From Candidatus Eiseniibacteriota bacterium (lineage in GTDB: Bacteria; Orphanbacterota; Orphanbacteria; Orphanbacterales; Orphanbacteraceae), in the NCBI GenBank assembly GCA_043809585.1, contig JBDROZ010000095.1, forward strand, positions 1 to 33,341: a DNA stretch of 33,341 nt, read 5' to 3'. The position numbers and the translations under genes are program-made. The notes beneath the pieces are model-generated. The model was not told where the DNA came from. It made no database searches and worked only from the letters and a program-made list of their open reading frames with translations. Shown here one piece after another: positions 1 through 33,341 of the stretch (position 1 is its first letter; each line of letters opens with the position of its first letter).

Positions 1-150
1 TCGGGAGGGGCCGGGGCATAACCGGGGAGCTCATGGAAGATCTGCGCACCGCAGATTGCGCGCGTCCGGAGAATGGGAGGGTTATGACCCGCCGCACGAC
101 GAGCGTCCCAGCCTGCCCCGATCCCCTCCCTCCTCCGATCCGCCCCCCCC
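1..150 (+). repeat. M1 structured repeat element, copy A (candidate ncRNA / MITE module); the window starts inside or at its 5' end
   Basis: Near-identical to 1871-2020 (about 5 mismatches in 150 nt). Homologous to 9561-9693 and to the reverse complement of 32985-33123. The 5' GGGAGGGGCCGGGGC can pair with the 3' GCCCCGAUCCCCUCCC. No reading frame is conserved across copies. Confidence 0.7.
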
Positions 151-177
151 CGCCGGCATGCTGGCCCCCCGGTCGGG

Positions 178-250
178 CTGAGTGCCGCCCGGTCCTCTGG
201 GCGGTGTATCGAAGCCTGTCCTGAGTAGGACCGAAGGTCCGTATCGAAGG
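178..250 (+). repeat. two tandem REP-like palindromic units (M2a 178-213, M2b 214-250)
   Basis: M2a is CUGAGUGCCGCCCGG-UCCU-CUGGGCGGUGUAUCGAAG and M2b is CCUGUCCUGAGUAGGACC-GAAG-GGUCCGUAUCGAAGG. The same flanks with different, still self-complementary stems recur at 2092-2142, 25129-25168, 32651-32686, 32881-32916 and 32917-32956. Confidence 0.65.
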
Positions 251-274
251 GGGCGGGTGGGGGAAAGTGGGCTA

Positions 275-1675
275 CTACCGAATCACCACCACCCGCTCCG
301 TCACCGTCCGCTCGCCGTCTTCCATCCGCACGAAGTACACACCCGCCGGGGCGTCAATTCCGGAGGAGGTCCGTCCGTCCCAGGTGAGGACACCGGATGC
401 ATCCTTCCCTTCGAGGGCGCGGACGACGCGGCCGCGGATATCGTAGATGGTGACGGGAACGGACGAGGAGGAGGGGAGGGAGTAGCGGAGGCTCACCTCG
501 CCGGTCGTGGGATTGGGCGAAACGAAGAGACCGAAAGCGCGGCTTGGCATTGAGCCCCCCTCCGCGACGGAGGTGTAGACGTCGCACCCCTGGCCGAGCG
601 CGCCAATGAGGAAGGGGCCGTTCGGGTTGTTCTCGGGGAGGCAGGGAGATGCGGCGTCGAGGGAGTAGTCGCCGAGAATCGTCGGTGCTTCCATCCCATC
701 TCGCGGTCCACAAAACACCGGATCCGTGTAGATCGATTGATAGGGCCACTCTCCCGGCGGTATGAGCCCTGAGGTATCCACGTCGCAGTATCTTAAGATG
801 AAGTTACCCCAGCTTTCGTCATAGAGTTCGGCCCCTTCTGGGGCATCGTTTCCCCAAAGGACCGACCAACGGCCCTCATGGGGGGCATCTGGGTTGCTTC
901 CGCAGTATATTCCTCCCCCTCCCCACTCGAGAGCCCGATTCCCCGCGATTGTCGTATGCCGAAACTCGAGGTGAGCCGCATCAAAACCGCTAATGGCAAT
1001 GCCGCCACCCGCGCCGGTAGACAGGTTTCCAATCACGAGACAACTATCGAGGAAAACGGCCGCCCTATGGCCATCGCACGAGATCCCTCCTCCCCCCCAA
1101 CCAGTGTTTCCTGAGATGATCGAACGACGGACCTCCGTTACACCCTTCCAAGCGCGGATCCCCCCGCCCCCACCGGGACCGCTGCATTCTGCGATAAGAC
1201 AGTCATAGACCTTTGTGGATGCGTCCCAGGAGAGGATTCCTCCCCCTACTCCGCTCGTGTACGACGTGCAGCCGACTATTCGACAATTCCGAACCGTGGC
1301 GGCGGCTTCGACCCGAATTCCGCCTCCCCCGTTTGCACTTCCGTTCTGGATGGTCAGGCATTCGACAGTTGCTTCATATCCTTCTCCGTCCACATAGAAC
1401 CCGCGACCCGATTCCTGGCAGTCGATAACGGTGGAATCGGGACCCAAGGCGGATCTGACTACCACGGCCTTTCCGCCGAAGACGATGTCCCTATTCCCCG
1501 CCCCCGTGTAGATCCCGTCATGAAGCAGTACCGTATCTCCCGCCGCCGCGGAGTCGATTCCCGCCTGAATGGTCGGGGCGCTGCCCGTGCTGTCGGGTTG
1601 GATGTGCCATGTGCGGGAGAGGGCGGGAGAAAAAGCCAAGAAAAGCGCAATCAGACTAGCGGCGAGGCGGATCAT
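275..1675 (-). CDS. secreted right-handed parallel beta-helix protein (Gly-rich GGGGI repeats) with C-terminal T9SS/FlgD-Ig-like sorting domain
   Basis: N-terminal signal peptide MIRLAASLIALFLAFSPALS. Repeated GxGGGI/CxxxG beta-helix motifs. C-terminus ...VYFVRMEDGERTVTERVVVIR. GGGAGG RBS 6 nt upstream of the ATG at 1675. TAG stop at 275-277. Confidence 0.85.
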   Translation of the reverse strand: MIRLAASLIALFLAFSPALSRTWHIQPDSTGSAPTIQAGIDSAAAGDTVLLHDGIYTGAGNRDIVFGGKAVVVRSALGPDSTVIDCQESGRGFYVDGEGYEATVECLTIQNGSANGGGGIRVEAAATVRNCRIVGCTSYTSGVGGGILSWDASTKVYDCLIAECSGPGGGGGIRAWKGVTEVRRSIISGNTGWGGGGISCDGHRAAVFLDSCLVIGNLSTGAGGGIAISGFDAAHLEFRHTTIAGNRALEWGGGGIYCGSNPDAPHEGRWSVLWGNDAPEGAELYDESWGNFILRYCDVDTSGLIPPGEWPYQSIYTDPVFCGPRDGMEAPTILGDYSLDAASPCLPENNPNGPFLIGALGQGCDVYTSVAEGGSMPSRAFGLFVSPNPTTGEVSLRYSLPSSSSVPVTIYDIRGRVVRALEGKDASGVLTWDGRTSSGIDAPAGVYFVRMEDGERTVTERVVVIR

Positions 1676-1692
1676 GTAGCACCTCCCATTCG

Positions 1693-1720
1693 TGGGATGT
1701 GGGATGTGGGATGTGGGATG
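1693..1720. repeat. tandem heptamer (GTGGGAT)x3 plus one degenerate unit in the 5' leader of the beta-helix gene
   Basis: Direct reading: gtgggat gtgggat gtgggat gtggatg, 18 nt upstream of the start codon. On the mRNA strand it reads (CAUCCCA)n immediately 5' of the RBS. Confidence 0.8.
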
Positions 1721-1746
1721 TGGATGACGAGTATCTACATAGAGTC

Positions 1747-1776
1747 AGAATACCATGACACCCGATGACGTGTAAA
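1747..1776 (-). promoter_or_regulatory. candidate sigma70-like promoter for the beta-helix T9SS gene (TTTACA-18-TATTCT on the minus strand)
   Basis: AT-richer island in a 70% GC context. Reverse complement reads TTTACAcgtcatcgggtgtcatggTATTCT, about 70 nt upstream of the start. Confidence 0.3.
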
Positions 1777-1870
1777 GGAGAAACAGAAGCATGCGCCCTC
1801 CGGTTCATTTCCTCCGGCAACTAGGGAGAGTCTCCGGATCTCCTGCGTTCGGCGGGACGGGGAATCGGCA

Positions 1871-2020
1871 TCGGGAGGGGCCGGGGCATAACCGGGGAGC
1901 TCATGGAAGATCTGCGCACCGCAGATTGCGCGCGCCCGGAGAATGGGAGGGTACTCTCCCGCCGCACGACGAGCGTCCCAGTCCGCCCCGATCCCCTCCC
2001 TCCTCCGATCCGCCGCCCCG
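1871..2020 (+). repeat. M1 structured repeat element, copy B
   Basis: Positions 1871-1930 are identical to 1-60. The remainder has 1-2 nt changes per 10 nt, including a hairpin-preserving swap GGGUUAUGACCC to GGGAGGGUACUCUCCC. Confidence 0.75.
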
Positions 2021-2091
2021 CCGATTTCATATCATCGTCATCCTTCTGGAAGCAGGGGATCCAGGAGATCAGAATTCAATCCTCCGCGTTC

Positions 2092-2142
2092 GCCCTTCGA
2101 TACACTGCCCGGAAAGCTCGGCGGCACTCAGGACGAACGGGG
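2092..2142 (-). repeat. REP-like unit M2a in inverted orientation relative to M1 copy B
   Basis: Reverse complement reads CCGUUCGUCCUGAGUGCCGCCGAGC-UUUC-CGGGCAGUGUAUCGAAGGGCG, with the same conserved flanks and a different paired stem. Confidence 0.6.
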
Positions 2143-2437
2143 GGTGGTGGACGCGGCACGAATAACCGATTGCGATCGGGGGCCCGGAAAGGCGAACATC
2201 ATCCCTTCTCCTTCCTCCGAGCGGCAGTCCTTGCTGATCGTTCTGACCCACGGGCGGGTGGCCGCGACAGGGGTCCGCGAGACGCGCAGCCACCAAGCAC
2301 CAGATCCCGATCAACGTCTTGTCATCGAGAGCGAAACGCGCGGTTCACGAATTGCGGACGAAGGAAGTCAAGCGTGCGACTGGCGAGCATCGCAGCGGAC
2401 AGGAGCGGACAGGACCTGCCCGTCCGCGCATTTCATC

Positions 2438-4351
2438 CTACCGTATATACCCCAGCGCTCTCAGCCCCTCGAGCGTCTCCTGGTCCACGACAAGCTCGGC
2501 CGTTTCTCCCTCTTCGATCGAAGCGAGCCAGTCGTCGATGAGGGGCGTGAGGTTCGCGACCACGTCGGGCCGCGAACCGGCGAGGTTCGTCGTCTCCCCC
2601 GGATCGGCGGCGAGGTCGTACAGTTCGAAGAGGGCGCCCTCCGGGGCCGGGATCCGGATCAGCTTCCAGTCGCCGAGGCGCACCATCCTCCACTTCCCCT
2701 CGTCCCCCGGCACGAGCCATCTCGGATTTTCCTGTTCCCCGCTCCCCACCACCGTCCGCCCGTTCTCCGCGAAAGCGGGCCGGTCCGTCTCGTCCGCCCT
2801 TCCCTCCACGACGGCGGGCACCCGGCCGTCCATCTCGGATTCCGCCGGGACTCCGGCGAGCCGGAGAAGGGCCGGCGCGAGGTCGATGAGGGCGACCTGC
2901 CGGGGCGAGAGAACGCCCGCCGGAAGCCGCTCCGGATATCGCAGAACGAGGGGCACCCGCTGGGTCGGGTCGTAAAGCAGGTGGGTGTGGGCGAACCAGA
3001 GGTCCTGCTCGCCCAGGCTCTCCCCGTGGTCCGAGGTGATCGCCACGATCGTGTTCTCCCGGAGGCCGAGAGAGTCCAGGGAGGCGAGAAGCCGTCCGAT
3101 CTCCCGGTCCGTGAAGGCGACCTCCCCATCATAGAGCGCGAAGGACGCCTCGAGCTCTCCGGGCGAAGGCCGAAGCCCGAAGATGCGCCGCCGCCCGTCC
3201 GGAAGCCTCTCGTCCAGGAGCCGCGCCTTCTCCTCGCCGTCCGGCGCGAACATCCGGTCGTACGGCGCCGGCGGCTTGTACGGGTAGTGGGGATCGAGGT
3301 AGTGGGCGTAGACGAAGAAGGGCCGGCCGCTCTTCCTCTCGAGAAGGCGGATCGCGAAGTCCGTGACCCGGTTCGCCCGGTAGCCGACGTCGAGGTCCCG
3401 GAGGCCGAGCCGCCCGAGCATCCTCCCGAGCAGGGAGTCGTCGAAGCGAACCGGCCGGTGCAGATAGCGGTACTCGTCGAACCCCTGCGCGAATCCCCAC
3501 GCCGGCGTGAGCAGGGGATGGGAATTGGCGAAGCCGGTCCGGTAGCCGGCCGCGCCAAACGCCTCCGCGAGGGTGAGCCACCGCTCCTCCAGCCGGTTCG
3601 GATGATTGATCACGCCGATCCGGCTCGGCAGCGATCCGGTGAGGAGGGCGGCGATCCCCGGCTGCGTGAAGGGGGCGGGCGAGACGGCGTCAGGGAAGAG
3701 CACCCCCTCTCGGGCGACACGGTCGATGGCCGGGCTCGTCCCCCGGGGGTGGCCGTAGCAGGCGAGGTGGTCGGCGCGGAGCGTGTCGACGACGAGAAGG
3801 AGCACGTTCGGCCCCCGGCCCGCGGCTCCGCTCCGCTCCCCGGCGAACACGCCCGCTCCAAAGAGGGCGAGAATGACGATCCCCCCGGCGGCGACAATCC
3901 GCCTCTCCATGGGCCGCCCCGGCGGGCGCCTTCCGATCAGGAGAAGGGCGCAGGCCGCGAAGAGGAGCATCACCGCGCTCGCCACGATCCCCCTGACGTT
4001 GAAGAGGCCCTTCACCTTGAAATAGTGAAACCAGAACGCGGTCCAGAAGAGGGCGGTCAGCAGCGATGCCGCGAGCGCCTCGCCGCCCCGTCGACGGAGC
4101 ACACCCCCCGCGATCAGACCGAAGGGGATGGCGAAGATCACGCCCAGCGCGCCGTAGAAAAGGGCGAGGAGAAGGCCGTAGGAGAGCCGGTCTCCCGGGG
4201 AGGCGAACCAGTACGGATGGGACGCGAACTGGGCGACGGCACCCAGGATTCCCGCGGCGGCGAAGGCCGGGATCGTCCAGGCGGCGGTTCTCCTGTTGAC
4301 GGGCACGGGCAGCCTCCTTCCACGGGGGAACGGATCCCGGCTCCATTCCAA
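2438..4351 (-). CDS. membrane-anchored sulfatase-like hydrolase/transferase (alkaline-phosphatase superfamily; LtaS/EptA/MdoB-like architecture)
   Basis: Four or five N-terminal TM helices, then NVLLLVVDTLRADHLACYGHPRGTSPAIDRVAREGVLF. The position of the sulfatase CxPxR motif reads APFTQPG (Thr nucleophile, no FGly Cys). DHGE and HTH metal-site motifs are present. Start is TTG at the ORF edge, so the start is uncertain. TAG stop. Confidence 0.75.
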   Translation of the reverse strand: MEWSRDPFPRGRRLPVPVNRRTAAWTIPAFAAAGILGAVAQFASHPYWFASPGDRLSYGLLLALFYGALGVIFAIPFGLIAGGVLRRRGGEALAASLLTALFWTAFWFHYFKVKGLFNVRGIVASAVMLLFAACALLLIGRRPPGRPMERRIVAAGGIVILALFGAGVFAGERSGAAGRGPNVLLLVVDTLRADHLACYGHPRGTSPAIDRVAREGVLFPDAVSPAPFTQPGIAALLTGSLPSRIGVINHPNRLEERWLTLAEAFGAAGYRTGFANSHPLLTPAWGFAQGFDEYRYLHRPVRFDDSLLGRMLGRLGLRDLDVGYRANRVTDFAIRLLERKSGRPFFVYAHYLDPHYPYKPPAPYDRMFAPDGEEKARLLDERLPDGRRRIFGLRPSPGELEASFALYDGEVAFTDREIGRLLASLDSLGLRENTIVAITSDHGESLGEQDLWFAHTHLLYDPTQRVPLVLRYPERLPAGVLSPRQVALIDLAPALLRLAGVPAESEMDGRVPAVVEGRADETDRPAFAENGRTVVGSGEQENPRWLVPGDEGKWRMVRLGDWKLIRIPAPEGALFELYDLAADPGETTNLAGSRPDVVANLTPLIDDWLASIEEGETAELVVDQETLEGLRALGYIR

Positions 4352-9444: not shown

Positions 9445-9560
9445 TAACGACGAGCTCGCTCCGAATTACTTGGCTTCCTCGAACTCCTCTTCTGCATTCT
9501 GGAATGGTCGTGCTCGTGTGGGATACCCGTCTGGAGGGGGGGGGGGCGGGGGGTCCGGCT

Positions 9561-9693
9561 TTGGGAGGGATGGGGGCATAACCGGGGAGTTGTTAGCATC
9601 TTCCGCGACGCCACCTCTTACGAGGCCGGAGAATGGGAGGGTCCTCTCCCGCCGTGCGACGAGCGTTCAAGTCCGCCCCTCTATCCCTCCCTC
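9561..9693 (+). repeat. M1 structured repeat element, copy C (no adjacent M2 units); preceded by a G10-C-G6 homopolymer tract at 9535-9551
   Basis: GGGAGGGAUGGGGGCAUAACCGGGGAG...CCGGAGAAUGGGAGGGUCCUCUCCCGCCGUGCGACGAGCGU...GCCCCUCUAUCCCUCCC. The closing-stem substitution G to A at the 5' side is matched by C to U on the 3' side, relative to copies A, B and D. Confidence 0.7.
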
Positions 9694-9758
9694 AGCCGGC
9701 CCCCCGCCCCGCCGATGCGCGGAGCCGAGCCGGAAGCTCGGGCAGTGTCCGGCCCCGC

Positions 9759-11270
9759 TCACCTTCTCGTCACCCGGTGTACGTGGAATCCGAAATCGAC
9801 GGGCTGGGTTCTATACTTATGTTCAGCGAAATGGGGCCGGTTTTCCCACGGAATGTCCGGGTACGGGACGCGGTAGCGGGTCAATCTCCAGCCGCCCTTC
9901 TCCTCCATGGCCCGTGCATACTCCATTGCCGGGTTGACGATCTCGGACCTGGGCCTCTCGATGATCCAATCGGCCTGCTTGAAGCTGTAGAGATACGAGG
10001 GCAATCCCTCGACCCGCCTCCGCGCTTCCGGATCGGAGGTTGTGATCTGTCCCACCATCCGGAGGTTGGTATAGAACATGATGGGCAGAGGATTGTGAAA
10101 TGTGAAAACGAAATCGTCCGGACCGGCATGTTCCCTCAGGAACTCGACGATCCCCTCGTTCGGTCCGTCGTAGTCGTGAGTGATCTCATAGAGAAAGGGG
10201 AGAAAGGCGCGCCCGTGAAAGAGAAGAAGTGCGCCGAGCACGGCGAACCCGAGGATCCGCTTTCTTCGGAAGCACGCCACGACCATGAGCCCCGAGAGAA
10301 GAGACAAGAGTGGGATGAGGAACACGGTATACCGTGGATTCGGCCAGAGGAGGTAGGAGACGAGCAGTATGGGGGGAACGAAGAGACACGCCGCCAGATT
10401 CAGAATCCTGCGGTTTTGGCCAAGGAGCGGGTATGCGAGGAGGATGGCGAAAGGGAAAATGTGGTTGTTGTAAGCCGCGAGGTACTCCCCGATCGCGGGA
10501 AAGAAGGACGGGCGGTGAAAGTGCTGAATATGCCGATGAACACGCGCCGGATCGGAGTACAGGAACCACGGCGTGCCCAGAGCGGCGATGCCGATCGTGA
10601 TGGCGGCGAAGCGAAAGAACAGTCTGCGTTCGAACCCGAAGAGGAGAAAGTGGATCCAGAAGCCGAGCAACGTGAAGAGACATGCACTGTTCTGCGCGTA
10701 GAAGAGGAAGATCGCGCCAACAAGGAAGAGAAGGTCGTACCGAAACCGTCCGAGTTTGCGGTAGCCTGCCAGCATGAGAAGGAACCCGAACGGCAGCAGC
10801 CCATAGTACCGACACTGTCGCATGTGCAGAAGGTATGGAGTGTTCAGCGCCAGCAGCGCGGCGGACAAAAGCGCGGTTTTTGAATCCGCCGTGTAGAGCC
10901 GGCCGACCCAATAGAGAAGCAAGATGCCGGCGAGCCCGATCATCGCGAATAGGAACCTTCCTCCGAACGTGGTCGGTCCCCAGATCCGGAAGCCGGCGGC
11001 CGCGAAATAGTGCATCGCCCAGGGCGAAAGCGTCCACACGAGATCGTCGTTGAACTGGTCGCAATTGACCGATACCCCGGGCTCGGTAACGAGGTTTCGT
11101 CCGTCCCACGCCCGGGGAAGCCAGTTGAATCCGTCTTCCCCTGAACCGATTGTCCGGGCGACGAGGGCCGTCTCCGCCTCGTCGACCCAAAAGTAGACGT
11201 TTCCGAGGTTCTTGAAGAGAAGAACCGCTCCGACCACGAGTATCAGCAGAAGAGGACCGATTGTCTTCAT
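9759..11270 (-). CDS. polytopic membrane glycosyltransferase, GT-C fold (ArnT/PMT, GT39/GT83-like)
   Basis: About 12 predicted TM helices after the signal-anchor MKTIGPLLLILVVGAVLLF, then a C-terminal soluble domain. ATG at 11270 has a GGGGAG RBS. The longer ORF to 11324 begins with GTG and no RBS. TGA stop at 9759-9761. Confidence 0.6.
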   Translation of the reverse strand: MKTIGPLLLILVVGAVLLFKNLGNVYFWVDEAETALVARTIGSGEDGFNWLPRAWDGRNLVTEPGVSVNCDQFNDDLVWTLSPWAMHYFAAAGFRIWGPTTFGGRFLFAMIGLAGILLLYWVGRLYTADSKTALLSAALLALNTPYLLHMRQCRYYGLLPFGFLLMLAGYRKLGRFRYDLLFLVGAIFLFYAQNSACLFTLLGFWIHFLLFGFERRLFFRFAAITIGIAALGTPWFLYSDPARVHRHIQHFHRPSFFPAIGEYLAAYNNHIFPFAILLAYPLLGQNRRILNLAACLFVPPILLVSYLLWPNPRYTVFLIPLLSLLSGLMVVACFRRKRILGFAVLGALLLFHGRAFLPFLYEITHDYDGPNEGIVEFLREHAGPDDFVFTFHNPLPIMFYTNLRMVGQITTSDPEARRRVEGLPSYLYSFKQADWIIERPRSEIVNPAMEYARAMEEKGGWRLTRYRVPYPDIPWENRPHFAEHKYRTQPVDFGFHVHRVTRR

Positions 11271-11436: not shown

Positions 11437-11481
11437 AAATACAAAAAGAAGCCTCGCAGGTTCCGCTATTCCCCGCGAGGC
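11437..11481 (-). terminator. rho-independent terminator downstream of the TPR gene
   Basis: On the minus strand: GCCUCGC-ggggaauagcggaaccu-GCGAGGC followed by UUCUUUUUGUAUUUG. Confidence 0.5.
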
Positions 11482-11617
11482 CTTCACGTCTCCGCTCGCT
11501 ACCCTGGGGTCCTCGCGTCGCCCCGAATCCTTCGGGGCCGTCCCGAAAACCTCGCTGGAATGATACCACATCGAGAGTGATCCGGCAACAGTTTCTTTAC
11601 GAGACAATGACCGAGAA

Positions 11618-25067: not shown

Positions 25068-25168
25068 CCGGGGGACACAATATCGGAACGGAGTTAAGTT
25101 TTGTGTCCCCCGGATTCCTACGATTCCGCCTTCGATACACCGGCCAGCTTGGCTGGCCGGCACTCAGG
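25068..25168 (-). repeat. composite repeat: M3 perfect hairpin (25068-25112) + REP-like M2a unit (25129-25168), downstream of thyX
   Basis: CCGGGGGACACAA-20 nt-UUGUGUCCCCCGG is a 13-bp perfect stem. Minus strand reads CCUGAGUGCCGGCCAGC-CAAG-CUGGCCGGUGUAUCGAAGG. This is the same architecture as 32608-32686. Confidence 0.65.
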
Positions 25169-25319
25169 GTGAACGGTGGAGGCAAGCGCGGCACAAACAA
25201 CCGCCTGCGATCGAGATCACGATTAGGCGGACACGCTTTCTCCCCCCTGAGCGGCAGTCTTCGCTGATTGCCTGCAACCACGGACAGGCCCCGCCCGTAC
25301 TCGACCTGCCCGCTGCCTT

Positions 25320-31045: not shown

Positions 31046-31394
31046 AGGGTCGGTTGTTCCGGCAGGGTCTTACCGGGTGCGAGTTCGGACGGGTCCTGTC
31101 GCCGATTGCCCGCTGCAGTGCTCGCCAGTCGCGCCATGTCTTTCTTGATTGCCCGGTGAGAACCGCGCCTTTCGATAGAGGCTCGGTCTTGTTTGTCGGG
31201 ATCGGGCGCTTGGTGGCTGCGCTCCTCGCGGGCCCCCATCGGCGCCACCCGCCCGTGGTTTCAAATGATCGGCAAGGACTACCGACAGGAGGGGGAGGAG
31301 AGGCGTTCGCCTTCCCGGGCCCCCGGTCCCCGACACCACTCGTGCCGCGCTCACCACTCCCCGTTCGTCCCGAGTGTCGCCCTCCCCCCGTCCT

Positions 31395-32492: not shown

Positions 32493-32607
32493 GAGAGATC
32501 CTCCGATGTATGAGATTGAGGTCGATTGCCTTGCTGGTCTCGGCACCGATTGTAGGGCAGACGAAGAGGAAGGGCTAGCGGGATCGGATGGAGGGGGAAA
32601 GCCCGAA

Positions 32608-32686
32608 GGGAATGCGGGGGACACGAAACGAGTTCATGTCCCCCGCATTCCGCCGGAGGCCTGTCCTGAGTAGGGCCGGAGGTCCG
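32608..32686 (+). repeat. M3 hairpin (32608-32650, 15-bp perfect stem) + REP-like M2b unit (32651-32686)
   Basis: GGAAUGCGGGGGACA-cgaaacgaguuca-UGUCCCCCGCAUUCC. Then CCUGUCCUGAGUAGGGCC-GGAG-GUCCGUAUCGAAGGG. This is the inverted partner of 32881-32916. Confidence 0.7.
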
Positions 32687-32880
32687 TATCGAAGGGCTCG
32701 GGCGGAACCAGTCCCCCACTGATTTCAAAGTGACTGAGCTCAGATGAGCAACGCTCCGATTCATTCCAAAGTCCCAAGCGCGGTGAGACTAACGAGGGGC
32801 CCGCGGGCCCGGGTGGGCGAACGTCTCTCCCCCCCCCTTTTACGTGTGCGCGTGGTCCCTCGCCTTTCCCCGGTTCGTCC

Positions 32881-32956
32881 CCTTCGAGACAGACCTTCGG
32901 TTCTACTCAGGACAGGCTTCGATACACCGCCCGGCCTCCGGCCGCGGCACTCAGGA
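32881..32956 (-). repeat. REP-like units M2b (32881-32916) and M2a (32917-32956) of repeat copy D
   Basis: Minus strand reads CCUGAGUGCCGCGGCCGG-AGG-CCGGGCGGUGUAUCGAAG then CCUGUCCUGAGUAGAACCGAAGGUCUGUCUCGAAGG. Together with 32651-32686 these form 36-bp imperfect inverted repeats around a 194-nt core. Confidence 0.7.
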
Positions 32957-32984
32957 CGAACGGGGGGGGAATCGGTGGGGCGGT

Positions 32985-33123
32985 GGATCGGAGGAGGGAG
33001 GGGATCGGGGCAGACTGGGACGCTCGTCGTGCTGCGGGAGATAACCCTCCCATTCTCCGGCCTCGTACAGTTAGCGTTGCGGAGGCCGCCAACAACTCCC
33101 CGGTTGTGCCCCGTCCCCTCCCG
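32985..33123 (-). repeat. M1 structured repeat element, copy D
   Basis: Reverse complement reads CGGGAGGGGACGGGGCACAACCGGGGAG...CCGGAGAAUGGGAGGGUUAUCUCCCGCAGCACGACGAGCGUCCCAGUCUGCCCCGAUCCCCUCCCUCCUCCGAUCC. Its 3' half is near-identical to copies A and B. Confidence 0.75.
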
Positions 33124-33275
33124 GTGCCGGTCCGCCGACCCGCCGCGTGCGGAAGACCGACGGCTGTCCCCACTCAACCTTCTACTCCCCCCGGTTCACA
33201 GACAGAAAAGCCCGGCCGGGGATTCCCGGCCGGGCACGATCTCGATCGCGCGCTTCACGCGCGCCCGTTCTTCCC

Positions 33276-33341
33276 TACCGAATCAGCGTCATCCGCTTCG
33301 ACTCGGAGAACTCCCCCGCCTGAAGACGGTAGAAGTACACC
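33276..33341 (-). CDS. 3' end of a gene encoding a protein with T9SS/FlgD-Ig-like C-terminal sorting domain (partial; continues beyond the window)
   Basis: C-terminal translation ...VYFYRLQAGEFSESKRMTLIR* parallels ...VYFVRMEDGERTVTERVVVIR* of the 275-1675 gene. TAG stop at 33276-33278. Confidence 0.6.

Follow-up and report, generated by a model that had tools for sequence, protein, structure and literature searches.

Hairpin-forming spacer repeats around a T9SS cargo gene in Candidatus Eisenbacteria: probable modules of a lineage-specific, non-coding family

The repeat designated M1 is probably one module of a lineage-specific, GC-rich, hairpin-forming, non-coding repeat family (M1 to M4) whose members form mosaics in permissive spacers of this Candidatus Eisenbacteria genome. 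The window, meaning the whole stretch of DNA analysed, is 33,341 nt long and is the entire contig of a Candidatus Eisenbacteria MAG. Two M1 copies lie on either side of a T9SS cargo gene (T9SS1), and this bracketing by REP/BIME/MITE-like repeats is most likely incidental. In the proposed scheme, M1 copies would have spread or been copied into spacers, mostly beside gene 3' ends and M2 units, and would then exchange sequence via homologous recombination or gene conversion. T9SS1 would be bracketed because each of its two spacers received a copy, with neighbouring copies partly homogenised, and the contig would start in copy A because the assembler probably broke in the repeat. Such a history would make M1 mobile and, presumably, selectively neutral. 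No shared target-site duplication could be recognised at the borders of copies B, C and D when these were read by eye (M2 and M4 modules blur the borders, and A is truncated), and no transposase, RAYT, integrase or other recombinase was found among the window ORFs scanned against Pfam.

Copies and mosaic arrangement of the repeats

M1 is present in four copies in 33 kb, in four separate spacers and in both orientations, with copy D inverted relative to A, B and C.

1..151, + strand: M1 copy A, 5' end lost at the contig start, type I variable segment (covariance model 169.5 bits; 94% to B)
1824..2026, + strand: M1 copy B, full length, core 1871-2021, type I variable segment (171.3 bits; long-hairpin fold)
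9540..9716, + strand: M1 copy C, core 9561-9712, type II variable segment, between convergent SDR and GT39 genes (153 bits)
32970..33170, - strand: M1 copy D, full length, core 32975-33124, type II variable segment (176.8 bits)

A covariance model built from all four copies scored those same copies at 153-177 bits (E 1e-27 to 1e-31). Exact matches to the 14-mer GGAGAATGGGAGGG number four in the window, rising to six when up to two mismatches are allowed, where shuffles give an expectation of 0.73. In self-blast, 1824-2026 around B is homologous to 33170-32970 around D, which puts full-length M1 at about 200 nt and shows copy A to be cut at the contig start. The initial annotation had described A and B as direct repeats about 97% identical. 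The shared orientation and the gene between them were upheld, but their identity is 94.6-95% in self-comparison of A 1-149 with B 1871-2019 and 94% (141/150) by a count of mismatches, nine in 150 positions, so the earlier figure is somewhat high. Their longest stretch of perfect identity covers 64 nt (positions 1-64).

M1 is accompanied by M2 (REP-like hairpin units, seven copies), M3 (three copies) and M4, which together make up a mosaic of spacer repeats.

165..267, + strand: M2 module after copy A, with tandem hairpin units M2a (178-214) and M2b (221-249) (self-blast, fold)
2095..2430, + strand: left M3 copy, beginning with an inverted M2a unit at 2095-2131 (self-blast)
9459..9547, + strand: M4 motif adjoining copy C, common to contigs of the closest relatives (sequence comparison)
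25116..25288, + strand: middle, partial M3 copy, containing an M2a unit at 25130-25167 (spacer absent in the relative's locus L050)
31078..31381, - strand: right M3 copy, between the transaldolase and MFS genes (self-comparison)
32656..32720, + strand: solitary M2b unit with tail (self-comparison)
32864..32967, - strand: M2 module after copy D, with M2b at 32882-32910 and M2a at 32917-32954 (self-comparison, fold)

The order of modules varies from spacer to spacer. Copies A and D are each followed by M2 (2-267 against 33123-32864, 81% identity in self-blast), B is followed by an inverted M2a unit and M3, and C is preceded by M4 and followed by an M2 tail. M2 and M3 are also found apart from M1. 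The seven M2 units, a small number from which to read a REP/BIME pattern, are 29-38 nt long, occur only in spacers and in both orientations, and have stems that vary yet stay paired. Each takes the form CTGAGT-hairpin-GTATCGAAG, with GTAG directly before the stem in the M2b type and GTGC in the M2a type. An apparent resemblance of M2 to a hammerhead (CUGAGUAG ... CGUAUC) was rejected since the core positions were wrong on inspection and there was no Rfam match. In the case of M3, 2120-2430 aligns with 31381-31078 at 72% over 313 nt, and 2080-2258 also matches 25116-25288.

That the contig begins inside copy A suggests an assembly break in the repeat. It also raises a highly improbable alternative, in which copy A was placed next to T9SS1 by a mis-join through the repeat at the contig end and the gene is not truly bracketed. 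The identity of positions 1-64 to B would be compatible with a mis-join, as would the fact that the M2 module beside A is itself a repeat. Copy A is nevertheless distinct, with its nine differences from B and variants of its own at 83-87, and its M2 differs by 12-19% from the other M2 copies, enough to provide unique k-mers.

Genes adjoining the repeats and the corresponding loci of relatives

The genes and signals next to the M1 copies were identified from Pfam, promoter, terminator and sequence comparisons.

275..1675, - strand: T9SS1 cargo gene, 466 aa, Beta_helix + FlgD_ig + Por_Secre_tail, GC3 0.69 (Pfam)
1692..1723, - strand: perfect heptanucleotide tandem repeat, GTGGGAT x 4.6, in the T9SS1 5' UTR (TRF score 64, the window maximum)
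1747..1776, - strand: predicted sigma-70-like T9SS1 promoter, TTTACA-18-TATTCT, conserved in L047 (promoter search)
9759..11270, - strand: GT39/ArnT-like membrane glycosyltransferase gene, GC3 0.74, absent from the syntenic site of relatives (sequence comparison)
33210..33235, - strand: predicted intrinsic terminator of T9SS2, 11 G-C pairs then a T-run (terminator search)
33275..33341, - strand: 3' end of T9SS2 with C-terminal sorting tail, the rest of the gene lying beyond the contig end (translation, alignment)

T9SS1 was assigned to T9SS type A cargo by PF18962 at residues 386-464 (E 2.9e-8), and a hydrophobic leader is visible by eye at the N-terminus of its translation. T9SS2 ends in VYFYRLQAGEFSESKRMTLIR* with its stop codon at 33275-33277. 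Its tail aligns with that of a FlgD_ig/Por_Secre_tail protein encoded at the equivalent place before the transaldolase gene of the relative L005. It had been noted that a second T9SS-CTD gene ends at 33276 and is followed by copy D; this was confirmed, the noted end falling inside the stop codon. Copy D lies about 150 nt past that stop, beyond the separate terminator (33235-33210), on the T9SS2 strand and with its 5' side toward the stop. Copy A is antisense to and convergent with T9SS1, with its M2 side toward the stop. Every M1 copy is downstream of the 3' end of at least one gene. The Pfam scan revealed no further T9SS tail in any other ORF that it covered; the thyX-like and transaldolase genes, which lay outside it, were recognised from sequence reading together with a database look-up.

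The earlier observation that both T9SS CTD genes abut M1 held, as a copy is present in each of the three spacers that border T9SS genes in the window. Three of the four M1 copies adjoin T9SS genes, for which p is nominally 0.004-0.07 under the different nulls used; this is a post hoc test that concerns two genes at two contig ends, both conditioned by assembly breaks. This adjacency, the direct orientation of A and B with their 64-nt identical block, the signs of exchange between copies and the presence of repeat modules after the L047 homolog as well are what would favour an enrichment of M1 and M2 at T9SS cargo genes that drives programmed deletion or amplification and thereby surface-protein variation. 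We consider such a system highly improbable. Copy C is away from T9SS genes, the orientation of M1 is inconsistent, orthologs or homologs in L005, L047 and L056 are without M1, and the repeats flank housekeeping genes too (transaldolase, MFS and thyX-like). A T9SS-specific role, whether as UTR regulator or as cassette element, is not borne out, given the position of copy C, the inconsistent orientation and the T9SS genes of relatives that are without M1. Of the three options first put forward, coincidence fits best.

Comparison with relatives supports the reading of M1 as a spacer repeat. Syntenic loci of relatives have the same gene order with short spacers and are without M1-type modules. 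The T9SS-TAL spacer is 782 nt here and 382 nt in L005, which has neither M1 nor M2, and the TAL-MFS spacer is 349 nt here compared to 98 nt (L005) and 55 nt (L050). ThyX and its neighbour are 273 nt apart here and overlap in L050. In L015, the region from the SDR gene to the TPR gene is without copy C and without the GT39 gene, and both are missing at the syntenic site in four relatives. M1-free spacers at corresponding junctions in L005, L050, L015 and L047 thus provide the empty sites expected of a MITE, the relatives being so distant (53-88% protein identity) that exact empty-site borders cannot be drawn. The T9SS2-transaldolase adjacency is, as judged from sequence, older than the repeats, since L005 has the same gene order and neither M1 nor M2. 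The closest available relative, L047, has an apparent T9SS1 ortholog in which the promoter and 5' UTR are conserved, M1 is missing upstream and the downstream repeat modules are different. The stretch of homology between the two is bounded precisely by the stop codon on one side and by a point about 108 nt before the start codon on the other. Short contigs of this relative terminate in M4 or M2-like sequence, a pattern that assembly breaks within repeats would produce. A T9SS1 homolog in the 21-kb L056 locus, from another relative, has no flanking repeats.

These comparisons bear on a second possibility, that M1 is a recombination site bounding mobile cassettes (attC-like, or through Campbell-type integration leaving direct copies) and that the T9SS and GT39 genes were acquired. 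Direct hairpin repeats with a variable centre do bracket a gene, and the two genes abutted by M1 at their 3' ends have atypically low GC3, the lowest in the window (T9SS1 between A and B, 0.69; GT39 beside C, 0.74; other genes 0.81-0.94), a feature that also counts against the preferred reading. The absence of GT39 and copy C from the syntenic site in four relatives agrees with acquisition, as do the GT39 homologs, which come from other phyla, one at 60% and the rest at ≤40% (≤35% over most of the length), and the abrupt limits of the T9SS1/L047 homology. We nonetheless regard this possibility as quite improbable. M1 flanks the GT39 gene on a single side, and copy D is at an ancestrally conserved gene junction. 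T9SS1 is resident in the lineage, with its promoter and 5' UTR conserved in the M1-free L047, and its homologs in relatives also show lower GC3 (0.78-0.79, against 0.90 for the transaldolase gene). A foreign origin of T9SS1, as suggested by low GC3, is weakened because the homologs in relatives are likewise below housekeeping GC3 and because the promoter is conserved. In addition, M1 is longer than attC, no GTTRRRY/RYYYAAC core sites are visible at its ends by reading, and no integrase or recombinase is present among the scanned window ORFs.

Searches beyond the window agree with a lineage-specific family. Neither the covariance model nor blastn detected M1, M2 or M3 across some 660 kb of loci from Eisenbacteria and related loci, and the exact M1 core pattern had no occurrence in viral contigs or in GTDB species genomes. 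Plasmid and phage records searched with the repeat-rich spacers gave no match. Three M1-core matches in JGI metagenome contigs were dismissed as chance: two are in an unrelated spacer and the remaining one is in a coding-looking stretch (WGEWEGPF...), calpain-like by our own reading. Two weak covariance-model matches were likewise set aside. The first, L022 10695-10837, is inside a 5'-nucleotidase gene and is a chance match; the second, L056 17191-17316, is apparently the coding part for the N-terminus of an ECF sigma factor and shows no folding (z = -0.46). A literature search returned no paper linking Eisenbacteria with T9SS or with such repeats. Separately, a different long GC-rich hairpin was observed upstream of the transaldolase gene in L053 (270-413; 12 bits, no blastn similarity).

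Fold and architecture of M1 compared with known systems

In B, C and D, M1 carries inverted arms of about 45 nt, whose pairing closes a long imperfect hairpin, with an MFE of -100 to -125 kcal/mol on either strand. These complementary arms correspond to the terminal inverted repeats of a MITE, and M1 is also small (~200 nt), non-coding and multicopy (four in 33 kb), as MITEs are. No conserved reading frame was found in it; an antisense frame stays open in three copies (A, B and D) yet is interrupted by stops in C and lacks a start, and a protein-coding M1 was rejected. Between the arms lie the invariant blocks GGGGCAYAACCGGGGAG, CCGGAGAATGGGAGGGT and CGACGAGCGT, all in predicted loops, and an internal 36-nt segment that exists in two unrelated versions (types I and II). 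The scaffold is 79-94% identical between copies and the 36-nt segment only 35-53% identical between types. This pattern of conservation is unlike that expected for a neutrally decaying MITE, and the swapped segment together with the invariant loop blocks hints at constraint, either on an RNA or on a protein-binding DNA hairpin.

This architecture is one argument for M1 as a functional structured RNA. Such an RNA could be a small RNA in several copies, or an element acting in 3' UTRs or as an insulator; its conserved loops would bind a partner, and the 36-nt segment would serve as a variable module. All copies retain the long closing stem, which has two compensatory pairs, and the exchanged internal segment sits in a conserved scaffold. 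Each copy is downstream of at least one gene 3' end, and the hairpin of L053 occupies a position upstream of the transaldolase gene in a relative whose transaldolase is 73% identical. Such a function seems unlikely, since only 2/41 predicted pairs carry a compensatory change and several pairs are broken, so that the four copies give no statistical support for RNA structure. The two strands fold about equally well, and M1 shows no consistent orientation to the genes beside it. It was found to carry neither a promoter nor a terminator signal, and no copy was called as an intrinsic terminator. No homolog was present in the relatives sampled. Rfam gave no hit in the whole window at gathering thresholds, and at permissive E-values in three sub-regions it returned only generic hairpin or miRNA-type noise; no tRNA or tmRNA was found in the window.

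The preferred reading, a family of spacer repeats, was compared with described systems. The REP, BIME and REPIN elements of Enterobacteria and Pseudomonas are short imperfect palindromes with conserved flanks, confined to spacers, present in both orientations, grouped with other modules into mosaics and frequently located just beyond the 3' ends of genes; M2 units appear to follow this pattern. M1 differs from it in being far longer (~200 nt) and in having conserved internal loops, and no sequence similarity to described REPs was apparent from the plasmid, phage and Rfam searches. M1 resembles MITEs (Neisseria Correia, ERIC/IRU, RUP and the cyanobacterial Nezha elements) in being non-coding, 100-300 nt long and bounded by inverted terminal arms, with diverged copies, insertion in spacers relative to empty sites in related genomes, assembly breaks and service as a recombination substrate. 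Unlike MITEs, M1 has very GC-rich arms, no recognisable target-site duplication and an uneven divergence of invariant blocks and one swapped segment. Composites of paired MITEs (Tn3-derived TIMEs and integron mobilisation units) also flank a gene with two small, non-autonomous elements in the same orientation. In the case of A and B, no shared target duplication surrounds the pair, the left border being missing at the contig end. M1 is without the Tn3-type 38-bp terminal repeat, and there is no sign that the A-T9SS1-B unit has moved, as L047 has the gene without M1.

Integron cassettes share with this locus a gene between direct imperfect hairpins, conserved arms around a variable centre, highly similar neighbouring sites and arrays that break assemblies. 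They differ in that attC sites are 57-141 nt long (M1, 150-200 nt) and stand in arrays of one orientation, whereas M1 copies are scattered and one is inverted. An attC reading of M1 was rejected because the RYYYAAC ... GTTRRRY core sites are absent and no copy has GTTRRRY at its 3' end. The only occurrence of GCATAAC is in an internal loop of M1, and neither B nor C conserves its partner GGTTAT. A related proposal, that M1 is a structured nucleic-acid element in which a 36-nt module can be exchanged within a fixed scaffold and which acts as a recombination or guide-type site for the insertion, exchange and loss of accessory genes, is in our view very unlikely. If it were true, the locus would represent an integron-like or bridge-RNA-like cassette system for genes such as those of the fast-evolving T9SS surface proteins and GT39, and we know of no such system in this candidate phylum.

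Exchange between copies and significance for the lineage

Sequence variation among the copies points to exchange. Copy A agrees with B at 18/18 informative sites in positions 1-63 and is a B/D mixture from position 83 on; mismatches between A and B number 1 in 82 positions compared to 8 in 68 (Fisher p = 0.011). A mosaic of B and D in copy A suggests that M1 copies do recombine. Because A and B are direct repeats that share 64 consecutive identical nucleotides, homologous recombination between them is plausible and could delete or duplicate 152-1870. The recombination idea raised in the initial annotation is therefore retained in part: the A/B pair is a plausible substrate and the mosaic copy A an indirect sign of exchange, but the T9SS-specific role attached to it was not supported.

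Nothing found here shows a dedicated system of surface-protein variation. A more conventional candidate for such variation is the GTGGGAT repeat in the T9SS1 5' UTR, which has about 1.5 units in the apparent T9SS1 ortholog of L047.

The bracketing of T9SS1 also serves as a caution against inferring a function for genes from their chance position between two repeat copies. A previously undescribed family of mosaic spacer repeats in Candidatus Eisenbacteria would explain the fragmentation of MAGs in this lineage, because contig ends fall within the repeats both here and in the nearest relative. Should a genome-wide excess of M1 at T9SS or accessory genes be seen, or deletion or duplication of 152-1870 in reads, this would indicate a simple, repeat-driven turnover of surface proteins in a phylum that, to our knowledge, has no cultured member.

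M1 copies and the spacer modules around them

The initial annotation had placed a T9SS gene between direct repeats, and self-comparison bore out the repeat (1-149 against 1871-2019, 94.6-95% identity). Copies A and B of this element, M1, differ at 9 of 150 positions and begin with an identical run of 64 nt. Two more copies, C and D, lie in the window, which is an entire MAG contig of 33,341 nt with a GC content of 66%, and a covariance model made from the four scores them at 153-177 bits. Homology between B and D covers 1824-2026 and 33170-32970. This puts full M1 at about 200 nt and makes copy A a truncated one at the contig start, where we infer that the assembler broke inside the repeat.

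Copies of repeat modules.
1-149, plus strand: M1 copy A, from self-comparison; start cut by the contig edge
1871-2019, plus strand: M1 copy B, from self-comparison (homology with D, 1824-2026)
9561-9712, plus strand, as A and B: M1 copy C
32975-33124, inverted: M1 copy D (homology with B, 33170-32970)
2095-2430: M3, after copy B
31381-31078, inverted: M3, between the transaldolase and MFS genes
25116-25288: partial M3, after the thyX-like gene
9459-9547: M4 motif; also at 1-36 and 1243-1265 of L004 and 1690-1790 of L047, two relatives' loci

The same M2 module follows copies A and D (2-267 against 33123-32864, 81% identity). Copy B is followed by an inverted M2 unit and then an M3 element, and copy C has an M4 motif before it and an M2-like tail after it. 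The M2 module is built of CTGAGT-hairpin-GTATCGAAG units, seven in all, which come in two sizes and face either way; their stems vary in sequence from unit to unit, and the majority still pair. Each of the three M3 copies (about 310 nt, one partial) opens with an inverted M2a hairpin unit, and in syntenic relatives the spacers that host them measure 55-98 nt or do not exist. Among the 13 spacers that reach 100 nt, 6 contain at least one module. M4, which contains ...CTCCTCTTCTGCAYTCTGGA..., is common to the window and to short Logan contigs from the sample of the closest relative. M4 forms the start or the end of those contigs, which suggests a high copy number for it in that clade; M2-like sequence is present there too, with contigs ending in it. 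A near-perfect 43-nt palindrome (GGAATGCGGGGGACA...TGTCCCCCGCATTCC) occupies 32605-32655, a short way upstream of the 5' region of the transaldolase gene, with a solitary M2b unit directly after it.

Folding predicts that full M1 copies form a long imperfect hairpin on either strand, closed by complementary arms of about 45 nt. Between copies, the 5' stem, core and tail are 65-100% identical (79-100% for 5' stem and core). An internal segment of 36 nt comes in two unrelated types, one shared by A and B (97% identity) and the other by C and D (75%), with cross-type identity only 35-53%. The invariant blocks GGGGCAYAACCGGGGAG, CCGGAGAATGGGAGGGT and CGACGAGCGT fall mostly within predicted loops. 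This unusual conservation keeps alive the proposal that M1 is a structured RNA, to which we assign a low probability. The predicted structure is plausible and statistically unsupported with four sequences, since only 2 of 41 pairs show compensatory change and several break. M1 has no conserved reading frame, no attached promoter or terminator and no matching Rfam family, and the window holds no tRNA or tmRNA gene.

Homologous recombination is known to act on direct repeats of this length, and in principle the proposal that A and B could serve as its substrates is sound. At all 18 informative sites in positions 1-63, copy A matches B; beyond these it agrees with D, D, B, D and B in turn, and it has D's M2 module. 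Mismatches between A and B are uneven, with 1 in 82 positions and 8 in the remaining 68 (p = 0.011). This mixture of B-like and D-like sites gives indirect support to interaction among M1 copies and, as read from sequence, speaks for gene conversion or for copy A being a recombinant; it does not extend to deletion or amplification of the intervening gene.

Corresponding spacers in relatives

The nearest available relatives are distant, with a transaldolase 88% identical in L004 (a 1.3-kb Logan contig) and at most 76% identical in all others. The minus-strand gene run from 33275 to 23843 (T9SS-tail gene, transaldolase, MFS transporter, Cys/Met enzyme, homoserine dehydrogenase, aldehyde dehydrogenase, ThyX ... 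NifU) has the same order in two loci, of which L005 covers the T9SS-tail gene to aldehyde dehydrogenase and L050 covers transaldolase through ThyX to NifU. Compared with the window, the spacers of these two loci are much shorter, and they hold none of the modules.

Spacer lengths in the conserved gene run.
T9SS-tail gene to transaldolase: 382 nt in L005; 782 nt in the window
Transaldolase to MFS: 98 nt in L005, 55 nt in L050; 349 nt in the window
ThyX to neighbour: genes overlapping in L050; 273 nt in the window

For the 5'-nucleotidase region the comparison drew on 31 loci of GTDB genomes, most of them Eisenbacteria. In one of these relatives, L015, the SDR gene is followed at once by a conserved spacer block and a TPR gene; the window has M1 C and a gene for a GT39/ArnT-like membrane glycosyltransferase (9759-11270, minus strand, ABIK65_13190) in between. 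Four relatives lack the glycosyltransferase gene, whose GC3 is 0.74, at the syntenic SDR-TPR site. The nearest homolog shares 60% identity and the other listed matches at most 40% (at most 35% over most of the length); those that are named come from different phyla, Omnitrophota and Planctomycetota among them. The gene, which adjoins copy C, is probably accessory or acquired. The only locus with a close homolog (L048) has as convergent downstream neighbour a T9SS-tail (FlgD_ig) gene fragment at 2283-2477, minus strand. No M1 was seen by eye in its flanks, and the covariance model gave only a chance-level match of 10.9 bits inside the glycosyltransferase gene.

The spacer block, about 150 nt long and upstream of the TPR gene stop, is conserved between 11440-11600 of the window and 10250-10440 of L015; the relative sharing it has a 5'-nucleotidase 73% identical to that of the window. 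It has no Rfam match and could be an unannotated small RNA or regulatory region.

Neither blastn nor the covariance model found M1, M2 or M3 in about 660 kb of relatives' loci. GTDB species genomes and viral contigs had no exact match to the M1 core pattern, and all its matches in JGI metagenome contigs were due to chance. As far as can be seen from these collections, the repeat family is therefore confined to this lineage. A different long hairpin, GC-rich and very stable (-108 kcal/mol), occurs at 260-420 of L053, and also in L054 and L055, upstream of a transaldolase gene (73% identical transaldolase), placed and oriented like M1 D in the window. The M1 model gives it only 12 bits and blastn shows no similarity to M1; it may be a distant homolog or an analogous structure.

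T9SS genes and their M1 neighbours

Both T9SS-tail genes of the initial annotation are present. The bracketed gene (275-1675, minus strand) encodes 466 aa with Pfam Beta_helix, FlgD_ig and Por_Secre_tail domains. The right-end gene, which continues past the contig edge, encodes a C-terminus VYFYRLQAGEFSESKRMTLIR before a stop codon at 33275-33277 and matches the tail of an L005 FlgD_ig/Por_Secre_tail protein encoded upstream of a transaldolase gene. Pfam scans found no further T9SS tails in the window, whose other genes encode a sulfatase, hybrid histidine kinase, 5'-nucleotidase, SDR, GT39-like membrane protein, TPR protein, ArsP/Band7 proteins, M14 peptidase, ECF sigma/anti-sigma pair, two radical-SAM enzymes, NifU, ThyX (by sequence reading), aldehyde dehydrogenase, homoserine dehydrogenase, Cys/Met PLP enzyme, MFS transporter and transaldolase.

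Homologs of the bracketed gene are common in Eisenbacteria, the best only 56% and 53% identical. The 53% homolog (L047) is an apparent ortholog, because it comes from the same sample as the 88%-identical transaldolase and its promoter, 5' UTR and start region are well conserved (window 1783-1676); the bracketed gene thus appears to be a fast-evolving resident and not a recent import. Its GC3 is 0.69, versus 0.81-0.94 for most window genes, and its homologs show a milder version of this (0.78-0.79, versus 0.90 for a relative's transaldolase gene). No M1 occurs in the 228 nt of L047 past the upstream homology, whereas in the window copy B begins 41 nt past it; downstream, L047 shows two M4 motifs and an M2-like unit where the window has M2 and M1 A. 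In L056, a 21-kb locus, a 48% homolog is free of repeats on both sides. The bracketed gene's protein is absent from a collection of 5.8 billion proteins that holds the contig's transaldolase and GT39 proteins; the gene may be unannotated or pseudogene-flagged in the public record, despite an intact 466-codon ORF.

All three T9SS-adjacent spacers in the window carry M1 (nominal p = 0.014 among 13 long spacers; 0.004-0.07 under other nulls), a value weakened because the test was post hoc, a single gene accounts for two of the spacers, and both contig ends were set by assembly breaks. The association is further weakened because the fourth copy, C, lies between the SDR and glycosyltransferase genes, related T9SS genes lack M1, sister modules adjoin housekeeping genes, and orientation differs: A has its M2 side towards the stop of its T9SS gene, on the opposite strand, and D is on the same strand as its gene, 3' of a separate terminator. 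A mild excess at T9SS genes would be expected if monocistronic, dispensable genes with long spacers best tolerate insertions. That M1 marks a cassette boundary is likewise improbable, and stays in consideration because M1 copies abut the two lowest-GC3 genes.

On balance we lean towards a new, lineage-specific mosaic repeat family of REP/BIME/MITE-like character that brackets the T9SS gene incidentally, with no named-family membership established. M1 resembles a MITE in that it is small, has inverted arms, occurs in multiple copies and has empty sites in relatives; target duplications and a parent element would complete the likeness. In its form M2 fits a REP, and M1 lacks the core sites that define attC.

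The 5' UTR of the bracketed gene

The top-scoring tandem repeat in the window is a perfect heptanucleotide, GTGGGAT, repeated 4.6 times at 1692-1723, in the bracketed gene's 5' UTR. A sigma-70-like promoter (1776-1747) precedes it and the RBS and ATG follow; in L047, where the upstream region is otherwise conserved, only about 1.5 units are present. The repeat is a candidate slipped-strand 'contingency' repeat. For surface-protein variation, which the initial annotation had tentatively linked to an M1 cassette system, it is a more conventional candidate than M1.
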